Positions 1,108-31,222 of a DNA stretch of 32,000 nucleotides are shown here, piece after piece. Location of the stretch: NCBI GenBank assembly GCA_964432405.1, contig CAYSNH010000004.1, positions 1 through 32,000 of the forward strand, in the 5' to 3' direction. The DNA comes from an uncultured Candidatus Saccharibacteria bacterium. Its GTDB lineage: Bacteria; Patescibacteriota; Minisyncoccia; UBA6257; UBA11618. How positions within the stretch are numbered: position 1 is the first letter of the stretch; each line of letters opens with the position of its first letter. The notes under the pieces were generated by a model that was not told where the DNA came from, made no database searches, and was given only the letters and a program-made list of their open reading frames with translations. A program made the translations under genes and the position numbers.

Positions 1108-3417
1108 ATGTTTAAAAAACTATTTAAAAGATTTTCTCCTGATAAGAAGTTAGGCAAGGTTGTTCAACAGATTAATAATCTAGAGAAACAGTTTGAACAA
1201 TTATCAAAAGATCAGTTGGTAGATGCAAGTGCTAAACTTCGTCAACGAGCTCAATTAGGTGAAAATTTAGATAATTTATTACCAGAAGCTTTTGCCCTGG
1301 TTAGAGAGACTGCTAAGCGGACTTTGGGTCAGCGACATTATGATGTCCAATTAATGGGCGGAATAGCTCTGCACCAAGGTAAGGTTACAGAAATGATGAC
1401 TGGTGAGGGTAAGACCCTGGCTTCTACAAGCCCTATTTATTTAAATGCTTTAACTGGTAAGGGAGTTCATGTCATTACCGTTAACGAATACTTGGCTAAG
1501 CGTGACATGGTTTGGATGGGGCAAATCTATCATCTATTAGGTTTAAAGATATCTTGTCTGGCTCACGATACCGCTTATTTATATGATCCGGAATTTAAGA
1601 TCGATACGGAAGATAAAAATCAGACTGATAAAAATAGAGATGAGACTGGTAGCTTTTTAGTTCATGAAGAATATCTTCGACCGGTTGGTCGTAAAGAGGC
1701 CTATCAAGCTGATATCGTCTATGGTACTAACCATGAATTTGGCTTTGATTATCTTAGAGATAACTTGGCCACCAGTGTAGAGGGTCAGTCTCAAGGAGAA
1801 TTTAGTTTTGCTATTATCGATGAGGTCGATAGTGTTTTGATTGATGAGGCTCGTACCCCACTAATTATTTCTGCTCCTGATGCAGAATCAAGCGCTTTTT
1901 ATAAAGTTTTTGCTCGTGTGGTAGCTCGTTTAAAACCTGAAAAAGATTATATTGTTGAGGAGAAGCTTCGAGCTGTTAATATTACCGAAGATGGCATTGA
2001 TAAGGTTGAGAAGGAGTTAAAAATTAAAGATCTCTATTCTCCAGAAAATATTCGCCTTAGTCATTACCTTCAAGAAACTCTTAAAGCCCAGGGTCTTTTT
2101 CAGCTAGATAAAGATTACGTTGTTAAAGATGGTCAGATTATTATCGTTGATCAATTTACCGGCCGCCTAATGCCAGGTCGTCGTTATTCAGCCGGTCTTC
2201 ACCAAGCCTTAGAGGCTAAGGAGGGAGTTCAGGTTCAGAATGAATCTCGTACTTACGCCCAAATTACTATTCAAAACTACTTCCGTTTGTATAAAAAAAT
2301 CTCTGGTATGACTGGTACCGCTCAAACCTCAGCTGAAGAGTTTGCCAAAGTTTACGGTCTAGATGTCATCTCTATTCCCACTAACAAACCTTCGGCTAGG
2401 AAGGATTTGCCTGATGTGATCTATAAGACTAGGAAGGCTAAATATAATGCCTTGGTTAAGGAGGTTAAAAGAGTTAATGAAACAGGCCAACCTATTTTGA
2501 TTGGTACGGTTTCTATTGAAAACAATGAAGAGGTCTCTAACTTATTAGGCAAAGCAGGTATCAAGCACGAAATGCTTAATGCCAAGAAGCATGAACAAGA
2601 AGGTAAGGTTATTGCTCAAGCTGGAAGATTGGGAGCGGTAACTGTTGCTACCAACATGGCTGGTCGTGGTGTCGACATCGTATTGGGTGGTAATCCTGTT
2701 GATGCCGAGAAGGCTGATAAGGTAAAAGAATTAGGAGGTCTTCATGTTGTTGCTACCGAGCGACACGAGGCTCGTCGTATTGATAATCAGTTACGTGGTC
2801 GTGCCGGTCGTCAGGGTGACCCAGGATCTTCTCAATTTTATCTTTCTTTAGAAGATGACATTTTACGTATCTTTGGTGGTGAGCGAGTTCAAAACATTAT
2901 GGAGTCTTTGAAGGTTCCAGAAGATATGCCAATTAGTGCCAAGATGATTAGTAAGTCTGTTGGACAGGCACAAGGCAAGATCGAGGGCATGAACTTTGAT
3001 GCTCGAAAACACTTACTCGATTACGACGACGTTCTTAACAAGCAACGAAAAGCTATTTATAAACGCCGCCAGGAGTTATTAGAAAATAAATCTCATCCAC
3101 AAATACTAAGTATGTTAGACATGCTTTGGATGAGTCATTTAGAAAATATAGAAGCTTTAATGGATGCGGTTCGTATTCGAGCTTATGGTCAACACGATCC
3201 TTTGGTAGAGTTTCGTAGAGAAGCTCATGTTATGTATCAGCAGTTGATTGCTGACTTTGAGGATTGGATTAAGGAAAATGCCAACAAGCTAGAAGAGGTT
3301 ATTGAAACAGTTCCTCTTCCAACCAAACCTTTGTCTGAGGATGATAAAAAAGTGGGTCGTAACGATCCGTGTCCTTGTGGTAGTGGTAAGAAGTATAAAA
3401 AATGCCACGGCGCTTAA
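1108..3417 (+). CDS. secA: Preprotein translocase ATPase SecA
   Basis: 769 aa with MMTGEGKTL Walker [23 protein letters not shown]-like box, [10 protein letters not shown], and C-terminal zinc motif [14 protein letters not shown]. Confidence 0.95.
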
Positions 3418-3418
3418 A

Positions 3419-4435
3419 TTACTTGATTAATAGATAATACCAGGATCTAGCTCCTCCATTTACCGCGCTGCTTTTAGTATTTCTGAGAGTAATATCTATT
3501 TTGTTAGTACTGGAGTTAGCGAAAGCTCCTACCATCAACAACCCAGACTCCAAACTTTTATTAGGAGTCAAAAAGACGCGATCACCACTTTCTATAGTTA
3601 TTCCGCTAGGAGGGTTAACAGATACAGTGCCATTGCTATCAGCTCCAATATTAGGCGGGTCAACAGTTATTTGACCATTATAAATACCACTCATTGGAGT
3701 GCCATTATCACTCACCTTAAGAGTTTTGACCTGAGCTTCTGTATCAACTTTTAAAGTGCCACTAAAAAAAGCATCTTTCCACTTATAGCCAGAACTACCA
3801 ACATCAACGTTGTTATTGGCGCCAGGTAAAAGGGTGGTGTCAAAAATAGCAGCATAAGCTTTGCTCGTTCCCAAAATTAATTTTCGTGAGACCTGCTCCT
3901 GCTCTTGTTCGCTGTTATAACTAAGGGCGAGATCTATTTCTATTAAATCTCGACCAGGGTAATCAACAAATTTGGTGAATTCTAATTTATCAACTACCAC
4001 TTTGTCGGTTGTAAGTTCGCTAGTTGTAGAATGACCAATCTCTCCTCCTCGTCCCTTGCGAACCTTTATTACACCTCCATCTAGATAGATAATAGTCGGA
4101 GTAGTTTCTGAGTTAGAAGAGTTTTCATCTTCTGGTAATTTAAGAACTAGATATTTTTGAGCTACCCCCAAGTTATTATCCACCTCATCCCAGTCTTTTC
4201 CTAAATCAGTATCTTCAATTGAATTGGTAGCAACTACATGACTAGCGTTACTAATCATGCGTTGAATTTTTTGCGTAACAAAACTTAATTGAGAGGAGAC
4301 TTCATTTTTCGAAGACTGGGTAATGGTAACTCGGGAAAAGGTGACTAATATACTAGAAAAAGCCACCGCTAAGATAGCAAATATACCTATATAAATTAGG
4401 AGCTCAACCAAAGTAAATCCAGCTCTTTTTCTCAT
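3419..4435 (-). CDS. Prepilin-type N-terminal cleavage/methylation domain protein (large type IV pilin/pseudopilin-like, 338 aa)
   Basis: N-terminus MRKRAGFTLVELLIYIGIFAILAV is a class III signal (G|FTLVE plus hydrophobic helix). TATAAT (4443-4448, minus) lies 7 nt from the ATG. The C-terminal part is not recognisable. Confidence 0.7.
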   Translation of the reverse strand: MRKRAGFTLVELLIYIGIFAILAVAFSSILVTFSRVTITQSSKNEVSSQLSFVTQKIQRMISNASHVVATNSIEDTDLGKDWDEVDNNLGVAQKYLVLKLPEDENSSNSETTPTIIYLDGGVIKVRKGRGGEIGHSTTSELTTDKVVVDKLEFTKFVDYPGRDLIEIDLALSYNSEQEQEQVSRKLILGTSKAYAAIFDTTLLPGANNNVDVGSSGYKWKDAFFSGTLKVDTEAQVKTLKVSDNGTPMSGIYNGQITVDPPNIGADSNGTVSVNPPSGITIESGDRVFLTPNKSLESGLLMVGAFANSSTNKIDITLRNTKSSAVNGGARSWYYLLIK

Positions 4436-5044: not shown

Positions 5045-6131
5045 GAAAATTGCTTTAGTCTACGATTATCTTAATCAATACGGTGGCGGGGAGAGGGTGC
5101 TAGAAATTTTTACCGCCATGTTTCCTCAAGCTCCGCTTTATACTATTTTCTACGACCCACAAAAGACTCGTCAAAGATTTAATACTAATACTATAAAGAC
5201 CAGCTTCCTAGATTACAAATTAGCCAGAGAAAATCATCGTTGGTTTATCCCCTTTATGCCACGAGCTATAGAGAGTCTAGATCTTGGCAATCAGTATGAT
5301 TTAATTATCTCTATTGGAGCTAGCTACGCTAGAGGAATAAATTATCAATCACCTACCAAACATCTTCATTATTGCTTCACTCCTATACGCTACGCCTGGG
5401 AGGATAGATATATTCCTCCTCAGATAAAAAACCTTAATCTTTTAACTCGACCTTTGAGAAATTATCTAAGACGATGGGATTTTAAAGTTGCCCAGAGACC
5501 AGATAAGATATTAACCATTTCTAATCATATCGCTATGAGAATAAGAAAATGTTATGGTCGCTCAGCTGAAATACTGCACCCACCCCTAGATACCAAAATC
5601 TTTTATCTCGATTCTAATATAAGGAAGCAGTCATATTTTCTAGCTGCTGGTCGATTGCTTCATTATAAAAAATTCGACCTAGTTATTAAGGCTTTTAATA
5701 AATTAAACCTTCCCTTAAAAATAGTTGGTCAGGGCCCAGAGATAGATCGATTAAAAAAAATGGCCACTTCTCCCAAAATAGAGTTTCTAGGCTTTGTTAA
5801 AAGCGATAATGAGATGAGATTGCTTTATTCGGGTGCTCGAGCTTTTATATTCCCTCAGGTAGAGGATTTTGGCTTGGTTGCCGTCGAAGCTCAGATCTGT
5901 GGAACGCCCGTTATTGCTTTTGCTCAAGGAGGAGCTTTAGATATTATTAATCATGGTCAAAATGGCCTTCTTTTTGCCGAACAAACCCCTGAATGCTTAG
6001 CTTACGCCATCAAAGAGTTTTGTAAGTATGATTTTGATCGTAAAGCTATTAATCAATCTGCTGAGAGATTTGCAGTAAAAAACTTCAAACTTGCCCTTGT
6101 CAAACACATAAAAAAGTTGCAAAAAAGTTGA
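5043..6131 (+). CDS. Glycosyltransferase, GT4 / Glycos_transf_1 family
   Basis: MKIALVYDYLNQYGGGERV N-terminus and C-terminal EDFGLVAVEAQICGTPVIA...GGALDII E-x7-E region. The track ORF opens at 4929, but ATG 5043 gives the canonical N-terminus. Confidence 0.8.
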   Translation: MKIALVYDYLNQYGGGERVLEIFTAMFPQAPLYTIFYDPQKTRQRFNTNTIKTSFLDYKLARENHRWFIPFMPRAIESLDLGNQYDLIISIGASYARGINYQSPTKHLHYCFTPIRYAWEDRYIPPQIKNLNLLTRPLRNYLRRWDFKVAQRPDKILTISNHIAMRIRKCYGRSAEILHPPLDTKIFYLDSNIRKQSYFLAAGRLLHYKKFDLVIKAFNKLNLPLKIVGQGPEIDRLKKMATSPKIEFLGFVKSDNEMRLLYSGARAFIFPQVEDFGLVAVEAQICGTPVIAFAQGGALDIINHGQNGLLFAEQTPECLAYAIKEFCKYDFDRKAINQSAERFAVKNFKLALVKHIKKLQKS

Positions 6132-25064: not shown

Positions 25065-27373
25065 TGAGATACAATCATCAACAAGTAGAAAAGAAGTGGC
25101 AAAAGGTTTGGGAGAAGGAAAAGGTTTGGCAAGCCAATGACAAATCTAAAAAGAAAAAATATTATTCATTAATTGAATTTCCCTATCCTTCTGGACTTGG
25201 TTTGCACGTGGGTCATATAAGGAGTAATACGGCCATGGATATAATTTCTCGTAAGAGGAGAATGGAAGGTTATAACGTTCTTTATCCTATCGGCTGGGAT
25301 GCTTTTGGTCTACCAACCGAAAACTACGCTATCAAAACTGGCATCTCACCCCAAAAAGCCACCAAAGAAAATACCGATAATTTTCGTAAGCAATTAAAAT
25401 CCTTAGGTTTTTCTTTCGATTGGGATCGGGAAATCAATACAACCGACCCCAAGTATTATAGATGGACTCAGTGGCTCTTCCTGCAATTCTTCAAACACGG
25501 CCTAGCATACAAAGATTCGGTAGCTGTTAACTGGTGCCCTTCTTGCCTAACTGGTTTAGCTAATGAGGAGGTGGTGGGTGGTAACTGTGATCGTTGTGGT
25601 TCAGAGGTAGAGAGAAAACTTAAGAGTCAGTGGATGCTTCGTATTACCGCTTATGCCGACAAGCTTTTAGATGGTTTGGCGAGCGTTGACTTTTTAGATG
25701 AGATAAAAACTCAACAGAAGAATTGGATCGGTCGTTCTGATGGGCGATTAATTAAATTCCCTATCACCGGTTCCAAATTAGAGATCGATATCTTTACCAC
25801 TCGTCCCGACACAATCGATGGCGCCACTTATATGGTCCTAGCTCCCGAGCATCCTTTTATTAGTGAGCTCAAGATTAAGAATGAGAAAGAGGTGGAGCGA
25901 TATATAAAGAAAGTTCAGAAGAAGAGTGATCGAGAGCGTCAGGAGAATAAAATCAAGACAGGTATTGAGTTGAAAGGAGTAAAGGTTGTTAATCCTTATA
26001 ACAACAAGAAGATTCCAGTCTGGGTTTCCGATTATGTATTAATCGGCTATGGCACTGGAGCTATCATGGCCGTCCCTTTTCATGATGAGCGAGATAGAGA
26101 ATTTGCTGAGAAGTTTAAGTTACCTATCGAAGATCGTCCTTTAGTTACTAAAAAAAGAGAGTGGCCGGGCAAGTCTCAAATCAATTACAAACTTAAAGAT
26201 TGGGTCTTCTCACGCCAACGTTACTGGGGCGAGCCTATTCCTATTGTTAATTGTAAGAGTTGTGGCTTTGTGCCTGTTCCAGAAAAAGACCTTCCTATCA
26301 AATTGCCTAAGGTTGATAGTTATCGACCACGACCTGATGGTCAATCACCGCTAGCCTCTGTTGCTAGCTGGGTAGATGTGAAGTGTCCTAATTGTAAAGG
26401 AAAGGCTCGGCGAGAAACTGATACCATGCCTAACTGGGCGGGTTCTAGTTGGTATTTCTTGCGTTACACCGACTCTCAAAATAATAAAGAATTTGCTGAT
26501 AAGAAAAAGTTGAAATACTTTATGCCAGTTGATTGGTATAACGGTGGTATGGAGCACGTCACCTTACACCTCCTCTATTCTCGTTTCTGGAACATCTTTC
26601 TTCACGACGTCGGTCTAGTTCCTTGTTCTGAGCCGTACAAGAAGAGAACCGCTCACGGTATGATTTTAGGAGAGGGTGGTGAAAAGATGGCTAAGTCTAA
26701 AGGCAACGTTATTAACCCAGATGGAGTGGTTAAAAAGTTTGGAGCAGATTCGCTTCGTCTTTATGAGATGTTCATGGGTCCTTTTGATGAAGCTATTCCA
26801 TGGGACGACCAAGGAGTGATTGGTACCAGTCGCTTTATTAATCGTGTTTATAATATTGGCATGAAAGTGGCTCAGCATAAATCAAAAGCCTCTATCGACA
26901 AGGAGTTGGAAAAGCTACTTCATCAAACTATAAAGAAGGTTAGTCAGGACATTGAACTAATGCGCTTCAATACCGCTATCTCCACCATGATGATTTTTAT
27001 TAATGAGGTAGAGAAGCACAGCTCTCGAACTGTGATCGGTCAGAAATTCTTCTCAGATTTTCTTAAATTACTCTTTCCTTTTGCTCCACATCTGTCACAG
27101 GAGCTCTGGAAGGCCGTTGGCAACGACGATTTATTAGATTTTAAGGCTTGGCCTAAGTGGAAGGAAGGTCTAACTGTTGAGGAGCGATTTGAGCTGATTA
27201 TACAGATTGATGGTAAGTTGCGAGGTACAGTGGTTGTTAAGAAGGGATTAAGCAAAAAGGAGGCGATAAAGTTGGCTAATGATCACAAGGTGGTTAAGGG
27301 CTATTTAGAAGGGCAGAAAATCAAGAAGGTGATTTTTGTACCTGATAGGTTAATTAACTTCATTATTGGTTGA
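25064..27373 (+). CDS. leuS: Leucine--tRNA ligase
   Basis: PYPSGLGLHVGHIRS (HIGH), CPSC...CDRCG zinc site, TTRPDTIDGATYMVLAPEHP editing domain and KMAKSKGN (KMSKS). The start overlaps the tatD stop (TAATG). Confidence 0.95.
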   Translation: MRYNHQQVEKKWQKVWEKEKVWQANDKSKKKKYYSLIEFPYPSGLGLHVGHIRSNTAMDIISRKRRMEGYNVLYPIGWDAFGLPTENYAIKTGISPQKATKENTDNFRKQLKSLGFSFDWDREINTTDPKYYRWTQWLFLQFFKHGLAYKDSVAVNWCPSCLTGLANEEVVGGNCDRCGSEVERKLKSQWMLRITAYADKLLDGLASVDFLDEIKTQQKNWIGRSDGRLIKFPITGSKLEIDIFTTRPDTIDGATYMVLAPEHPFISELKIKNEKEVERYIKKVQKKSDRERQENKIKTGIELKGVKVVNPYNNKKIPVWVSDYVLIGYGTGAIMAVPFHDERDREFAEKFKLPIEDRPLVTKKREWPGKSQINYKLKDWVFSRQRYWGEPIPIVNCKSCGFVPVPEKDLPIKLPKVDSYRPRPDGQSPLASVASWVDVKCPNCKGKARRETDTMPNWAGSSWYFLRYTDSQNNKEFADKKKLKYFMPVDWYNGGMEHVTLHLLYSRFWNIFLHDVGLVPCSEPYKKRTAHGMILGEGGEKMAKSKGNVINPDGVVKKFGADSLRLYEMFMGPFDEAIPWDDQGVIGTSRFINRVYNIGMKVAQHKSKASIDKELEKLLHQTIKKVSQDIELMRFNTAISTMMIFINEVEKHSSRTVIGQKFFSDFLKLLFPFAPHLSQELWKAVGNDDLLDFKAWPKWKEGLTVEERFELIIQIDGKLRGTVVVKKGLSKKEAIKLANDHKVVKGYLEGQKIKKVIFVPDRLINFIIG

Positions 27374-27387
27374 CAAAAGGGTTAATA

Positions 27388-28443
27388 ATGGTTAAAATAT
27401 GGCCGATGAAAAATATAAAGGTTTTCGCGGCCATTTTAATTTTAAGCAATATGTTTATGGGCTTAACAGCTCATGCTTATCATGAATATTATTACCGACC
27501 CGAATGGAATCCGGTAACTTATAATTCTGCTCCAAGATGGAATGCTGAGACCGTTAAATATGCTCACGTTGGTCAAAATATGACATTTACCGTTTCTGCT
27601 AATGATGTTGACGGTGATCGTCTATCTTATTACGGTATGTTCTTACCAATAGGAGCTCGTTTTGACAGTCATAGTAGAACTTTTACTTGGACCCCTAGAA
27701 AGACTGGAACTTATGATCTACAATTCCGAGTTTATGATGGTGGTTATAGTCACTCTGATCTTTATGTTACCGTTGTTGTTGGTAATAGATTGCCAGAGTT
27801 TAACAATATAACTCCAGTTGATTATGACTATCCTACACATAATCCAACCAATCCTTCTAGTACTTATTTAAACTTTGTTAACTTTAATCCAGTTAGTACC
27901 GCTACTGAGAACCAGCTTTACACTTACACGGTTCAGACGAATAGTAGCCATAAGGTAATATACTCTTTACCAAGAGCTCCTCAGGGAATGACCATTAACC
28001 CAGACCTAGGTATTATTATCTGGCTACCAAATCAGAATCAGGCTCAGCTAGCTCCTTATTTGGTAACGGTTAAAGCTACCAATGGTTATCAGGACATTCA
28101 GCTCAACTACAATCTAACTGTTGGTGAGGGTGGTACGATCACTCCTCAGCCAAAACCAGATCCTACCCCTCAGCCTACCCCTGGTCCTGTAGTACCAGAT
28201 GAGCCAGCTGATGATAAGGATGATCAAGACGAAGTTGAAACTGATGAAGATAAGACAGGTTTTCTAGCTAGCATATTTATTGCTGGTATAGACTTCCTCT
28301 TTAGTCCTTGGTTCTTGCTCTTCTTAATCTTTTTACTTCTAATACTTTTATTTCTTTGCAAAAGAAAAGGTAAAGGAGAAAAGCAATTAATTGCTTTCAT
28401 GGAAGAGAGAGATAAAATGGAAGATAAAGAGTTAGAGGAATAA
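27388..28443 (+). CDS. Surface protein: signal peptide, two cadherin/Ig-like domains, Pro/Thr-rich acidic stalk, C-terminal TM anchor
   Basis: Signal-like MKNIKVFAAILILSNMFMGLTAHA. FTVSANDVDGDRLSYY...FTWTPRKTGTYDLQFRVYDG and YTYTVQT...MTINPDLGIIIWLP...YLVTVKATNG resemble dystroglycan-type cadherin-like/putative Ig domains. Stalk TPQPKPDPTPQPTPGPVVPDEPADDKDDQDE, then TM FLLFLIFLLLILLFL. The start is uncertain (TTG 27370, ATG 27388 or ATG 27406). Confidence 0.6.
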   Translation: MVKIWPMKNIKVFAAILILSNMFMGLTAHAYHEYYYRPEWNPVTYNSAPRWNAETVKYAHVGQNMTFTVSANDVDGDRLSYYGMFLPIGARFDSHSRTFTWTPRKTGTYDLQFRVYDGGYSHSDLYVTVVVGNRLPEFNNITPVDYDYPTHNPTNPSSTYLNFVNFNPVSTATENQLYTYTVQTNSSHKVIYSLPRAPQGMTINPDLGIIIWLPNQNQAQLAPYLVTVKATNGYQDIQLNYNLTVGEGGTITPQPKPDPTPQPTPGPVVPDEPADDKDDQDEVETDEDKTGFLASIFIAGIDFLFSPWFLLFLIFLLLILLFLCKRKGKGEKQLIAFMEERDKMEDKELEE

Positions 28444-28475: not shown

Positions 28476-28492
28476 TCTTTTATAAACTAAAA

Positions 28493-28804
28493 TTAAAAGT
28501 CTCCAAAGTCTCCAAAGTCTCCAAAGTCTCCAGAATCTCCAAAGCCTCCAGAACCTCCTTCTCTACTGAAGCCCTCATTATTACATTTGTGAGCTCTAAA
28601 ATGTAAATGAGCGCCATGAGCTGGTCCACAATGAAAGAGTCCGCCACCAGACGACCCTCCACATCCTTGGGAGTTTCCATCTGGAAGAGGAGTACCCCCA
28701 GCCTCTACATGAGTTGATCTAGAAGGTGCTCCAAGCCAAATTAATAATACGGCGATTGCTATAACAACTAACCAAACAAGACTTTTGTTTTTCTTTTTTG
28801 TCAT
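28493..28804 (-). CDS. Small secreted or membrane-anchored Gly/His/Cys-rich protein with C-terminal (GDF)n repeat (103 aa)
   Basis: MTKKKNKSLVWLVVIAIAVLLIWLG signal/anchor, then GCGGSSGGGLFHCGPAHGAHLHFRAHKC, ending GGSGGFGDSGDFGDFGDFGDF-stop. TATAAT (28813-28818, minus) lies 8 nt from the ATG. It is 47 nt downstream of htrA on the same strand, with no terminator between them. Confidence 0.6.
   Translation of the reverse strand: MTKKKNKSLVWLVVIAIAVLLIWLGAPSRSTHVEAGGTPLPDGNSQGCGGSSGGGLFHCGPAHGAHLHFRAHKCNNEGFSREGGSGGFGDSGDFGDFGDFGDF
28496..28558 (-). repeat. 9-bp tandem repeat x7 (4 perfect and 3 degenerate copies) encoding the G-D/G-F/S triplets
   Basis: Plus strand: AAAGTCTCC x4 (28496-28531), then AGAATCTCC, AAAGCCTCC, AGAACCTCC. 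Confidence 0.9.
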
Positions 28805-28851: not shown

Positions 28852-29901
28852 TTATTTTCTTTCTGCTAACATAGCTTTCTTCTCAAACTCTCTGCTACCA
28901 CGTCTTACCTTTAAGAGAACGTAGTCACCAACACCTTTTTCTTCTAAGAAGTCTTGAATAGTTCTTTCTTTAGTTACCTTCTCACCATTAAACTCTAATA
29001 CAATATCTTTTTCCTTGAGACCGGCTTTGGCAGCTGGACTGCTAGGAATAATAGCTGGTTGCTTAGAGCTATGCCCTAATACCAAGGCACCATAATCAAC
29101 TGGTAATTTCATCTTAGCTTGAAGATTTTCATCAACCATTACATAACGAAGACCTAATAATGGTCGTTTTATTCTTCCAAATTTATTGAGATCACTTAGG
29201 TCTCTTTTTGCGGCGTTGATAGGAATGGCAAAACTAAGGTTTTGTGCTCCAAAGACTATAGCAGTATTAATACCAATAACTTGCCCCTTTGCGTTAATAA
29301 GTGGTCCACCTGAGTTACCAGGATTAACAGCTGCATCGGTTTGGATTAAACCTCTCAATTCTTGCATAGGAGTATTAGGGGCTACCGCAGCTGCGATCGA
29401 ACGAGAGAGTCCAGAAACAATACCTGAGGAAACAGTATTTTTAAATAAGCCTAATGCTGTACCAATAGCTAATACTGGTTGACCAAGGGCTATGGCGTCC
29501 GAGTCTCCCAAGCCAATTACAGGCAAACTGCGACCGGTAATTTTTAAAATCGCTACATCCTCAATTGGATCACGAGCTAAAATAGTGGCTTTATATTTCT
29601 TGTTGTCGTTAGTAACGACGGTATAGTCTGATTTAGCATCCGCCACCACATGCTTGTTAGTTAAAATAATACCCTTAGAACTGACAATGAACCCAGAGCC
29701 GCTACCAACCTTAATCATACCGTGGGCATCAGTCATTTGTTCGAGTTGTTTTTTAGGGTTTAAAAAGGGAAAGAGGGGAAGCAGTTCACGAGGAATTTCT
29801 TTTTCCACGTTCTCCAAACTTTTGGAAATAACAATGCTAACCATGGAGGGCATATTTTTTTGAATAACCTTTTCCCAACTTACCTGTGCCATCTCTAACA
29901 T
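28852..29901 (-). CDS. htrA: HtrA/DegP-family serine protease (S1C) with one PDZ domain
   Basis: GSGFIVS..GIILTNKHVV (His), DVAILKI (Asp), TDAAVNPGNSGGPLIN (Ser), and a C-terminal PDZ-like PAAKAGLKEKDIVLEFNGEKV. No obvious signal peptide. Confidence 0.85.
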   Translation of the reverse strand: MLEMAQVSWEKVIQKNMPSMVSIVISKSLENVEKEIPRELLPLFPFLNPKKQLEQMTDAHGMIKVGSGSGFIVSSKGIILTNKHVVADAKSDYTVVTNDNKKYKATILARDPIEDVAILKITGRSLPVIGLGDSDAIALGQPVLAIGTALGLFKNTVSSGIVSGLSRSIAAAVAPNTPMQELRGLIQTDAAVNPGNSGGPLINAKGQVIGINTAIVFGAQNLSFAIPINAAKRDLSDLNKFGRIKRPLLGLRYVMVDENLQAKMKLPVDYGALVLGHSSKQPAIIPSSPAAKAGLKEKDIVLEFNGEKVTKERTIQDFLEEKGVGDYVLLKVRRGSREFEKKAMLAERK

Positions 29902-29936
29902 CTTACCAAATATTTATAATAAATTTTATCAACAGG

Positions 29937-30009
29937 TTGACTTTATTTAAAAAGCTGATATTATCATTTAATATCGTTCTTTGCACAATTGTAGAAAAGG
30001 AGTTTCAAG
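29937..30009 (+). promoter_or_regulatory. Promoter, UTR and SD of the 101-aa ORF
   Basis: TTGACT (29937-29942), 16 nt, TATTAT (29959-29964), about 35 nt UTR, AAAGGAG ending at 30002, 7 nt before TTG 30010. Confidence 0.55.
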
Positions 30010-30315
30010 TTGGAAACTGGAGTTAAGGAAGGGCTTGATCGTTGCTATGTGATTCTCAGACGTCCCGAGCGTCAGGATACGGCTATCGTATTGTGTCCGG
30101 GGATGGAAATGCACATTTTCGATCAAGACGAGGAGTCTTTTGACAGATTGTTTAACCAGATTGAGGAGGCTACCGGATGCAAGTTTGTTCCAAGAGGTGA
30201 TTTAACCTCAGTCGTTTTATATGCAAGAGAAAAGCTGGAAGACGACTTGCAAGAAAAAGTGGAATTGCTTGAAGACGCTACTTATGCGTCGGCTGAGACC
30301 GTTGTACTTGGTTAG
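30010..30315 (+). CDS. Orphan small acidic protein (101 aa), no recognisable family
   Basis: TTG start with a well-spaced SD. One 60-nt line counted at 53% G+C. About 23 D/E vs 11 K/R. Terminator downstream. Confidence 0.55.
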   Translation: METGVKEGLDRCYVILRRPERQDTAIVLCPGMEMHIFDQDEESFDRLFNQIEEATGCKFVPRGDLTSVVLYAREKLEDDLQEKVELLEDATYASAETVVLG

Positions 30316-30334
30316 GGTCTGACAAGCAACACCC

Positions 30335-30367
30335 CCCGCTTAAGCTGTATAGCTGAGCGGGTTTTTT
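30335..30367 (+). terminator. Rho-independent terminator
   Basis: CCCGCT (30335-30340) ... AGCGGG (30356-30361), with inner AGCT/AGCT pairing, then TTTTTT. Confidence 0.75.
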
Positions 30368-30377
30368 ATTACACCCC

Positions 30378-30444
30378 TTTACAAAAATAAACTTTTGTTG
30401 TATAATGGCAGATAGTTACTTCACATTTCGAAAAGGAGTTAGAA
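30378..30444 (+). promoter_or_regulatory. Promoter, UTR and SD of the 130-aa ORF
   Basis: TTTACA (30378-30383), 17 nt, TATAAT (30401-30406) with extended -10 TGt. About 30 nt UTR, with AAAGGAG 7 nt before ATG 30445. Confidence 0.65.
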
Positions 30445-30837
30445 ATGACTACGTTTTCTGTTACCTTTCCTTCCGCAGTGATGGTTCCTGGTTATGGCGT
30501 TATTGATGACGTCGAGCCGGTACGAGGCGCTCATGATGCGTGCATCAAGCCAGTGTTGCGGCAAGGAGAAAAGAATCGTGTCCTCAGCTTAGACGAGCTG
30601 AAGATGAGAGCTATCGAAGAAAGAGGTGACTTGGGGATCAGAGATCTCAATTTCATCATGCAGACCAGCGTCCTACCTGAGGATGGTCTGGTGTACATCT
30701 TTCCGGGAACTATCTTGGAAAGAGATGGTGAGGTCTTCGTGCCTTATACTTACTTCGACAGCGTAGGTCTGACAAGAGGTTTTCGCAATCTCAAGGAAGG
30801 CTTCACTCAGCACGACAGGTTTTTCTGTCTTTGTTAA
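30445..30837 (+). CDS. Orphan small protein (130 aa), no recognisable family
   Basis: ATG with SD, own promoter and terminator. One 60-nt line counted at 55% G+C. Ends in ...RFFCLC. Confidence 0.6.
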   Translation: MTTFSVTFPSAVMVPGYGVIDDVEPVRGAHDACIKPVLRQGEKNRVLSLDELKMRAIEERGDLGIRDLNFIMQTSVLPEDGLVYIFPGTILERDGEVFVPYTYFDSVGLTRGFRNLKEGFTQHDRFFCLC

Positions 30838-30860
30838 AGAGATGGAGAGCTGAAAACACA

Positions 30861-30893
30861 AAACCCTATCGGTTTTTCCGATAGGGTTTTTTT
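30861..30893. terminator. Rho-independent terminator (12-bp stem), possibly bidirectional
   Basis: AAACCCTATCGG (30861-30872), loop TTTTT, CCGATAGGGTTT (30878-30889), then a T-run. It ends 7 nt from the 3' end of the convergent tRNA-Ala. Confidence 0.85.
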
Positions 30894-30899
30894 ATTGTG

Positions 30900-30972
30900 T
30901 GGACCGTAGGAGAATCGAACTCCTGACCTCCTCATTGCAAATGAGGCGCTCTACCGACTGAGCTAACGGCCC
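30900..30972 (-). tRNA. tRNA-Ala (TGC)
   Basis: Reverse complement GGGCCGTTAGCTCAGTCGGTAGAGCGCCTCATTTGCAATGAGG...TTCGATTCTCCTACGGTCCA. G3:U70 identity pair; anticodon loop TT-TGC-AA. Confidence 0.9.
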
Positions 30973-30975
30973 ATG

Positions 30976-31057
30976 CGGAGGGTATAGGAATCGAACCTAT
31001 GAGGGATTGCTCCCGCCGCTTTTCGAAAGCGGTGCATTACCATTCTGCCAACCCTCC
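30976..31057 (-). tRNA. tRNA-Ser (CGA), type II
   Basis: Reverse complement GGAGGGTTGGCAGAATGGTAATGCACCGCT-TTCGAAA-AGCGG, variable arm CGGGAGCAATCCCTCA, T-loop GGTTCGATTCC, discriminator G. Confidence 0.9.
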
Positions 31058-31059
31058 TG

Positions 31060-31131
31060 TGTCCCTACCAGGAATCGAACCTAGATCTAGAGTTTAGGAA
31101 ACTCTCGTTTTATCCATTAAACTACAGGGAC
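31060..31131 (-). tRNA. tRNA-Arg (CCT)
   Basis: Reverse complement GTCCCTGTAGTTTAATGGATAAAACG-AGAGT-TTCCTAA-ACTCT...CTAGGTTCGATTCCTGGTAGGGACA. Confidence 0.9.
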
Positions 31132-31149
31132 AAGTTTTCAATCAACCCT

Positions 31150-31178
31150 ATTATACCGAATTGTCAATTATTTAACAA
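31150..31178 (-). promoter_or_regulatory. Candidate promoter of the Arg-Ser-Ala tRNA operon
   Basis: Minus strand: TTGTTA (31173-31178), 17 nt, TATAAT (31150-31155), 18 nt upstream of the tRNA-Arg 5' end. Confidence 0.45.
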
Positions 31179-31222
31179 TAGCTGTACAAAGGATATCTAA
31201 TATTATATATTTTTTTAGTATT

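Follow-up and report, generated by a model that had tools for sequence, protein, structure and literature searches.

Target proteins of diversity-generating retroelements (DGRs) in the candidate phyla radiation (CPR, Patescibacteria) were reportedly first surveyed by Paul et al. in 2017. The DGRs of the CPR group in a separate clade, and a recognisable transmembrane or other domain is usually missing from their targets (PMC8144416). Here we describe a CPR locus in which a relative of such targets is found in a set of small, separately transcribed genes. It is located on contig CAYSNH010000004.1 (assembly GCA_964432405.1), of which positions 1 to 32,000 of the forward strand were analysed; this whole stretch of 32,000 nt is referred to as the window. 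Between the protease gene htrA and a tRNA cluster it carries two short open reading frames on the plus strand, ORF101 (30010-30315) and ORF130 (30445-30837), named after the length of their products in amino acids (aa). Taken together, our data make it probable that the interval is a strain-variable array of autonomous cassettes carrying a frozen, DGR-less member of a family of CPR DGR targets.

The variable proteins of CPR DGRs (DGR clade 2, Roux et al. 2021, PMC8144416) are similar to ORF130 in their small size and show homology over the whole 130-aa domain. As in these proteins, signal peptide, transmembrane segment and Pfam domain are missing in ORF130, the C-terminus is homologous to their variable region (VR), and the G+C content lies above that of the host. 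In contrast to them, ORF130 has no template repeat (TR), no Avd and no reverse transcriptase (RT) nearby, exhibits no variation of the adenine type and has lost the scaffold tryptophans. Moreover, the N-terminal ~55 aa are absent, and the gene lies in a tandem of paralogous cassettes which all have a promoter and a terminator to themselves. With the solved DGR proteins that adopt a C-type-lectin (CLec) fold (Mtd, TvpA, TaqVP and AvpA; PMC6328139) ORF130 shares a predicted beta-alpha-alpha-beta topology and the position of the variable segment in the C-terminal strands. However, its structural matches are not significant (TM-score ~0.38), and neither structures of the formylglycine-generating-enzyme subtype nor any PDB chain sequence were matched. 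Judged by the predicted structure, the ORF130 family may represent a minimal CLec variant of a new kind or else another fold.

In lambdoid phages, 'morons' are autonomous promoter-gene-terminator units inserted between other genes. The cassettes described here share with them a sigma-70-type promoter and an intrinsic terminator of their own, an atypical composition and presence/absence polymorphism between near-identical genomes. Unlike morons, they are chromosomal and lie between housekeeping genes rather than in a prophage, and a common 5' module and junction allow their exchange. Integron cassettes are likewise tandem single-gene units of strain-variable content. An integron array was rejected, as the hairpins are terminators with GC-rich stem and U-run lacking the attC cores RYYYAAC/GTTRRRY, no IntI is present among the annotated genes 8 kb to either side in sister contigs and every cassette has its own promoter. 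Two adjacent small genes at an accessory spot, one of them acidic, also resemble type II toxin-antitoxin and two-gene defence modules. This candidate was rejected too, with a terminator located between the genes, no match in Pfam, PADLOC, NCBIfam or PHROGs and the partner absent from other loci of the family.

The ORF130 family and its DGR linkage

Scans of both proteins against Pfam, PHROGs, NCBIfam and PADLOC gave no match. A word-indexed search of 5.8 billion proteins returned for ORF130 near-identical strains and a single paralogue. A profile was then built from ORF130, a strain variant and this paralogue and run against 1.8 billion representatives, which yielded 41 proteins at E<1e-3. Most of them are 150-200 aa long, and their C-termini align over profile positions 15-128. 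When ORF130 was left out of the family alignment, hhalign still linked it to nine family members with 99.1% probability (E=6e-19, 126 columns). Conserved motifs of the family are W.V.EDV.P, GEEMR.RA.EL.ANLGL.DA, YIVFPGT.LR and VPYL.W.G.RW.L.F.WL...W....RL. No family member matches Pfam, and the family profile has no match among PDB sequences. By these alignments ORF130 belongs to an unannotated family of Patescibacteria and phages, of which it is a stand-alone member trimmed at the N-terminus; the typical length in the family is ~185 aa, and the ~55-aa N-terminal extension is missing in ORF130. An IMG/VR scan with the ORF130 subfamily and a tblastn search of GenBank phages with the phage-borne homologue P0057 gave no match.

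The linkage of the family to DGRs became apparent from a homologue of Parcubacteria (P0051), which lies next to genes for an RVT_1 reverse transcriptase and bAvd (PF22296). A copy of the final 125 nt of the P0051 gene is found 417 nt downstream with 83% identity, and all mismatches (21/21) fall on adenines of the downstream copy. Five further DGR loci were found by a metagenome scan with a sub-alignment of nine sequences. In six loci (L016, L022, L025, L027, L031 and L041) the 3' ~125 nt of the gene are repeated 400-500 nt downstream with 78-93% identity. Mismatches at template adenines amount to 21/21, 17/18, 22/23, 9/9, 14/14 and 27/28 in this order, i.e. 110/113 in total. The same VR/TR pattern was seen in L032 by the reverse comparison, resulting in at least seven DGR-linked loci. 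Homologues of Avd and RT follow downstream in L022, L025, L027, L031 and L032, and the start of an RT gene is present in L041. Read in frame, the templates encode ...VPYLNWN.DRW.LNFNWLDNDWN.NDRL..., with AAC as the variable codon. The family thus consists of DGR variable (target) proteins with the template-adenine design typical of DGRs, in agreement with the literature on CPR DGRs (PMC8144416).

Roughly half of the loci with adequate flanks contain a DGR, the other half do not. DGR-free copies are found amid housekeeping genes (Trp-repressor-like, O-antigen ligase, FtsL, ClpB, NYN, RpiB, tRNA synthetase). Two further DGR-free copies lie on phage-like contigs: one (L019, 5001-5465) together with RecT, HNH, YopX, RusA and a Tad2-like anti-Thoeris gene, the other (L050, 3772-4248) with SLT, an MT-A70 methylase and a terminase. 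These contexts hint at an intracellular role in phage-host conflict. In L033 the family gene is directly followed by a truncated RT of 179 aa (5485-6024), which covers only RVT_1 positions 146-203, with neither Avd nor TR. This locus looks like a decaying DGR and represents an intermediate state.

The G+C excess of the family genes over their loci varies along the same series. It amounts to +16 to +24 points in DGR-linked members (VR 62-73%), +14 in L033, +9 in ORF130, +3 to +6 in other orphans and +4 to +6 in the cassette-3 genes described below, and is about zero or slightly negative in the phage copies. Such a gradient is consistent with amelioration once the retroelement had been lost. It also accounts for the anomalous composition at the cassettes that the original prediction had pointed out. 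The value of the locus lies mainly in defining this family of DGR targets and in the decay series, from active DGR target over decaying DGR (L033) to frozen orphan, with the G+C excess tracking the stages; a new mechanism is not revealed. An apparent ORFan becomes a member of a definable unannotated family; about half of this family are bona fide targets of DGRs in CPR, and some members are found on phage-like contigs. The natural series should be useful for studying the fate of hypermutation targets after retroelement loss, and why CPR targets lack export signals.

The structure of ORF130 was predicted using AlphaFold. An initial run with three sequences reached a pLDDT (per-residue model confidence) of only 66, and the resulting Foldseek matches were noise. 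With an alignment of 40 sequences the model reached a pLDDT of 92.3 and a pTM (global model confidence) of 0.84. The predicted order is beta-beta-alpha-alpha followed by five strands, of which the last four contain the equivalent of the VR. Foldseek ranked C-type lectins on top both in the PDB (BDCA2, EMS16, DCIR, aggrecan G1) and in a viral library (herpesvirus C-type lectin). The assignment of a CLec-like fold to ORF130 is tentative, if likely.

Some observations on other family loci are added here. Two large proteins match the family profile only at positions ~3-52, P0006 (1990 aa) seven times and P0009 (481 aa) four times; elsewhere, the beta-hairpin part at the N-terminus of the domain seems to occur as a tandem repeat. 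L038 harbours two family copies (332-808 and 2860-3444) 2 kb apart with a GT4 glycosyltransferase gene in between; the second copy lies 16 G+C points above its locus, and the contig ends 480 nt downstream. In L042 a tRNA-Glu(CTC) gene, encoded on the minus strand, lies 100 nt downstream of the family gene (786-1354), which converges on it. Being the only other case, it led us to reject tRNA adjacency as a trait of the family.

Variation and present state of ORF130

A tblastn search with the RT and Avd of L016 gave no match in the 32-kb window, in the related contigs L001-L005 or in L046-L049. A scan for adenine-tolerant template copies of the gene, covering the window and 16 kb of L001 (~48 kb), returned only the gene itself. 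The VR-equivalent segment comprises residues 88-130 (FPGT...DRFFCLC; 30706-30837, plus strand) and is homologous to the VR of the DGR-linked relatives. It is identical to L001 at 117 of 118 nt, with the strains differing by 0.4-0.8% overall. In the strain variant P0001 both differing residues are N-terminal. For the N-terminal and the VR part of cassette-3 orthologues, the ratio of non-synonymous to synonymous divergence (dN/dS) is 0.36 and 0.43, respectively. Between the paralogues of cassettes 2 and 3, dN is 0.39 in both parts and dS is saturated. Their VR-equivalents contain many synonymous differences, and consequently no shared template has acted on them recently. The scaffold residues W, RW, WL and W, fixed in the templates, are replaced by F, GL, NL and F in ORF130.

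From these comparisons we read ORF130 as a frozen, orphaned binding protein of the DGR-target type, with a presumed past as a target and a presumed ligand. That it was indeed once targeted appears rather likely, while a history in which it never was a target appears less so. In the DGR-linked relatives, the RT together with Avd would overwrite the 3'-terminal ~125 nt of the gene with a copy of the TR, randomising AAC codons and thereby diversifying a C-terminal ligand-binding surface. ORF130 would have kept the domain and the VR-equivalent and would now change through normal mutation, with purifying selection of moderate strength. Expression is presumably constitutive from its own promoter, and having no signal peptide the protein is probably intracellular.

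The cassette array between htrA and the tRNA genes

The left border of the array is htrA (28852-29901, minus strand), which encodes a trypsin-like protease with Trypsin_2 and PDZ domains and is divergent from cassette 1. The right border is a cluster of tRNA-Ala(TGC), tRNA-Ser(CGA) and tRNA-Arg(CCT) (30899-31131, minus strand), which converges on the cassettes and is fixed in all strains; htrA, too, is a fixed border. The array would be built from single-gene expression cassettes, each consisting of promoter, leader with Shine-Dalgarno (SD) sequence, open reading frame and intrinsic terminator. Cassette 1 starts with a promoter-like site on the plus strand (TTGACT-16-TATTAT, TG-extended, 29937-29964; 10/12 match), conserved in L001, L047 and L046. 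ORF101 follows; its start codon TTG lies 7 nt after AAAAGGAG. Its putative terminator T1 (30335-30367, plus strand) is a hairpin with U6 and a folding energy of -16.7 kcal/mol (z -2.2). Cassette 2 comprises a candidate promoter (TTTACA-17-TATAAT, 30378-30406, plus strand; 11/12 match), ORF130, whose ATG lies 6 nt after AAAAGGAG, and the predicted terminator T2 (30860-30897, plus strand) with a perfect stem of 13 bp (-20.1 kcal/mol, z -3.9). In a scan of 3 kb both promoters rank within the four best sigma-70-like matches. An A-run and a T-run border the palindrome of T2 (30860-30890), which the terminator scan called on both strands. T2 hence probably also ends the converging tRNA-Arg/Ser/Ala transcript, whose last gene, tRNA-Ala(TGC) (30899-30972, minus strand), has its 3' end 2-8 nt from T2.

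Scan and fold confirm what the original prediction had stated from the letters, namely two same-strand genes each with sigma-70-like promoter, SD sequence and hairpin terminator, and support its view of them as separately transcribed accessory units and not an operon. The closeness of T2 to the tRNA-Ala 3' end and the C-terminal FFCLC of the 130-aa protein were also seen correctly. The extended -10 element TGtTATAAT described for the second promoter does not exist; the actual letters are TTGTATAAT. A G+C content of 53-55% had been given, which is too high: we measured 45.4% for ORF101 and 48.1% for ORF130, and the richest 200-nt stretch of the interval has 50.5%. The anomaly itself is real in spite of its overstated size. 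The whole interval has 43.8% and the window 39.2%, both ORFs fall at about the 95th-98th percentile among windows of the same size, and G+C at third codon positions is 44% in ORF101 and 52% in ORF130 vs. ~30% in htrA and a gene for an Ig-domain protein.

A tRNA-targeted integrative island was considered but found no support. The tRNA-Ala end has no direct repeat in 29800-31200, and no integrase is found among the annotated genes 8 kb to either side in sister contigs, where the annotated neighbours are housekeeping genes. The absence of both features had already been noted from the window, and the repeat search and the neighbour annotation come to the same outcome; an integrase-driven insertion at the tRNA is left with neither att repeat nor enzyme. 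An Rfam scan of the interval detected tRNAs only. A base-composition island beside a tRNA need not be integrase-borne.

The host was assigned by htrA, whose protein is 97% identical to that of a metagenome-assembled genome (MAG) of Patescibacteria (UBA11618), 66% to that of Ca. Harrisonbacteria and 50% to that of another Patescibacteria MAG (L007). By sequence identity the host is thus placed in the Patescibacteria (CPR) with Ca. Harrisonbacteria as closest named relative. A proposed check concerned whether htrA directly adjoins the tRNA genes in relatives. This is the case in the distant L007, where an empty stretch of ~50 nt separates htrA from tRNA-Arg(CCT) and tRNA-Ser(CGA) upstream of it. 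In Harrisonbacteria the synteny around htrA differs. Hence the cassettes represent an insertion into the htrA-tRNA junction in one narrow lineage.

Contigs of near-identical strains (99.2-99.6% nt identity) carry either two cassettes (L047) or three (L001 and L002). The third one is located between T2 and the tRNA and encodes a 139-aa paralogue of ORF130 (55% identity) with its own paralogous promoter, leader, SD sequence and terminator. A more distant lineage (89% nt identity; L048/L049) has a 134-aa orthologue of the third cassette adjoining tRNA-Ala. It is preceded by an ORF101-like gene, whose C-terminus and terminator are strongly unlike those of the window. Between L048 and L049 these upstream genes differ, and from the T-run of the terminator onward both contigs are identical. 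The states of the array are therefore [101][130] in the window, [101][130][139] in sister strains and [101-variant][134] in the more distant strain.

The junctions of the cassettes are conserved. T1 is followed by GGGTTTTTTATTAC, which is repeated after each cassette, and the junction reads GGGTTTTTTATTA/TTTACA. Gain or loss of cassette 3 occurred at the repeated GATAGGG(G)TTTTTTTATT of both terminators. Every family cassette starts with a shared 5' module, GG(G)TTTTTTATTA, a few bases, then TTTACAAAAA..TGTTGTATAAT..ATAGTTA.TTCACA...AAAGGAGTTAGAAATG. This module, comprising promoter, leader and SD sequence, is common to cassette 2, cassette 3 of L001 and the 134-aa cassette of L048/L049. Diversity at this locus would accordingly arise by duplication, loss and allele exchange of cassettes through recombination at the conserved terminator/promoter junction.

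Several metagenome contigs break inside the locus (L003 and L004 at 30517, L005 at 29974), as expected from heterogeneity of the population. Compared to L046 (29482-30562), silent divergence is ~0.31 in htrA, 0.12 in ORF101 and 0.03 in the 5' part of ORF130, all from small counts, and the spacer 30316-30444 is 99% identical. Given these small counts, the cassettes look as if they were shared between strains more recently than the flanking htrA.

ORF101, alternative explanations and a second variable spot

The product of ORF101 is acidic, as had been stated (pI 4.3; 23 D+E vs. 11 K+R). The frame is open in strains down to 94% nt identity, with 11 non-synonymous and 7 synonymous changes (dN/dS 0.41), of which 10/18 are at third codon positions; htrA shows 0 non-synonymous and 23 synonymous changes in the same comparison. 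This supports ORF101 as a coding gene. In the word-indexed search of 5.8 billion proteins its matches were near-identical strains. Beyond close strains, relatives could be detected solely in the divergent upstream genes of L048 and L049; with the L048 gene, ORF101 shares ~40% identity across the final 33 residues, at a phmmer E-value of 0.008 in a search of a small set. No relation to the profile of the ORF130 family was detected, and no match was found in PDB, IMG/VR or GenBank phages. Of the two genes which the original prediction had both called orphans, ORF101 remains a lineage-restricted orphan, while ORF130 belongs to a sizeable family. We assume that ORF101 would be an unrelated, fast-evolving acidic protein travelling with the array.

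A number of points weigh against the interpretation of ORF130 as a frozen family member in an array of autonomous cassettes. The C-type lectin matches are not significant (E 0.1-0.5, TM-score 0.36-0.40). The promoter and terminator calls are consensus matches, and promoters of the host phylum are poorly characterised. ORF101 or its variant precedes the family gene in 5/5 locus variants with diverging alleles, so that a functional link between both is possible. The direction of change, i.e. a DGR lost vs. ORF130 never targeted, is deduced from the G+C gradient, L033 and the retained VR-like segment and is not proven. Finally, the DGR search spans ~48 kb of the genome, and a remote DGR may reside elsewhere.

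In the latter case ORF130 and the 139-aa paralogue would be live remote targets, whose C-termini are diversified in trans by RT, Avd and TR encoded at another site. DGRs are enriched in CPR, and remote targets are known and were missed by surveys of short contigs (PMC8144416). Moreover ORF130 retains the VR-equivalent followed by a strong hairpin. Yet this segment is almost invariant between strains (one difference in 118 nt), its dN/dS equals that of the rest of the gene, the synonymous changes between the paralogues speak against a recent common template, the scaffold residues which a template would reimpose are gone, and the ~48 kb contain neither TR nor RT. We thus regard a live remote target as very unlikely. 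A reading of one ORF or of both as frames that are open by chance in non-coding spacer DNA could refer to their small size, the missing database annotation and the TTG start of ORF101. The 55%-identical paralogue with the frame kept, ~40 remote homologues and a model with pLDDT 92 effectively refute it for ORF130. For ORF101 it is contradicted by the open frame at 94% nt identity, the third-position bias and the dN/dS of 0.41. With a strong SD sequence at correct spacing in both genes and no Rfam family in the interval, the probability of chance frames is close to nil.

The original prediction favoured a compact two-component accessory module. ORF101 and ORF130 would then have to act together, e.g. 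as a binder with its acidic partner or as a toxin/immunity or defence pair. A 101-like gene ahead of the family gene in every locus variant (window, L001, L046, L048 and L049) would agree with this, as would ORF101 alleles which diverge while the downstream cassette of L048/L049 is identical, a behaviour conceivable for a specificity partner. Family members among early/accessory genes of two phage-like contigs point in the same direction. Against it, the genes are separate transcription units each ending in a terminator, neither protein matches PADLOC, Pfam, NCBIfam or PHROGs, and none of ~25 other family loci has an ORF101-like neighbour. Co-occurrence, whose presence elsewhere had been proposed as a check, is hence confined to one locus in one narrow lineage and may be plain inheritance, i.e. 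synteny by descent. We consider such a module improbable. That the cassettes are left over from a mobile element, be it as phage morons or as an integrative islet which had used the 3' end of tRNA-Ala for entry, with any present function being incidental, is less far-fetched but still unlikely. Such an origin would account for the moron-like build with own promoter, own terminator and atypical G+C, the adjacent tRNA 3' end, relatives in phage-like contigs, a dS of the cassettes below that of the flanking htrA vs. L046, which suggests recent exchange, and the L042 gene likewise converging on a tRNA. However, integrase, att repeat of the tRNA end and any other phage gene are missing within 8 kb, IMG/VR and GenBank phages contain no relative, and the G+C excess belongs to the protein family itself. 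Moreover this explanation accounts for the origin of the cassettes and is compatible with a frozen DGR-target relative in a cassette array, to which it is not an alternative. Staying with the cassette array, one may further speculate that cassette shuffling, duplication and strain-to-strain swapping at the terminator/promoter junction replace DGR mutagenesis as a retroelement-independent diversification. A CLec-like binder and a hypervariable ORF101 would then form a matched intracellular specificity pair, e.g. for phage/host recognition in an episymbiotic CPR bacterium. We give little credence to this idea.

Two neighbouring genes to the left of htrA were noticed in addition. An Ig-domain protein with He_PIG/Big_9 (27370-28443, plus strand) has a Pro/Asp-rich linker and a C-terminal transmembrane anchor. 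Its length is strain-variable with 357 aa in the window, 348 in L001, 330 in L003 and 327 in L004. An ORF of 103 aa (28493-28804, minus strand) encodes an N-terminal hydrophobic anchor, a Gly-rich middle part and a C-terminal GDFGDFGDFGDF repeat (DNA repeat at ~28490-28540). The region 28477-28717 has no alignment to the sister strain L001, which carries a 97-aa version of this ORF, and the flanks are 99% identical. At 1.2 kb from the cassettes, this is a further spot that varies between strains.

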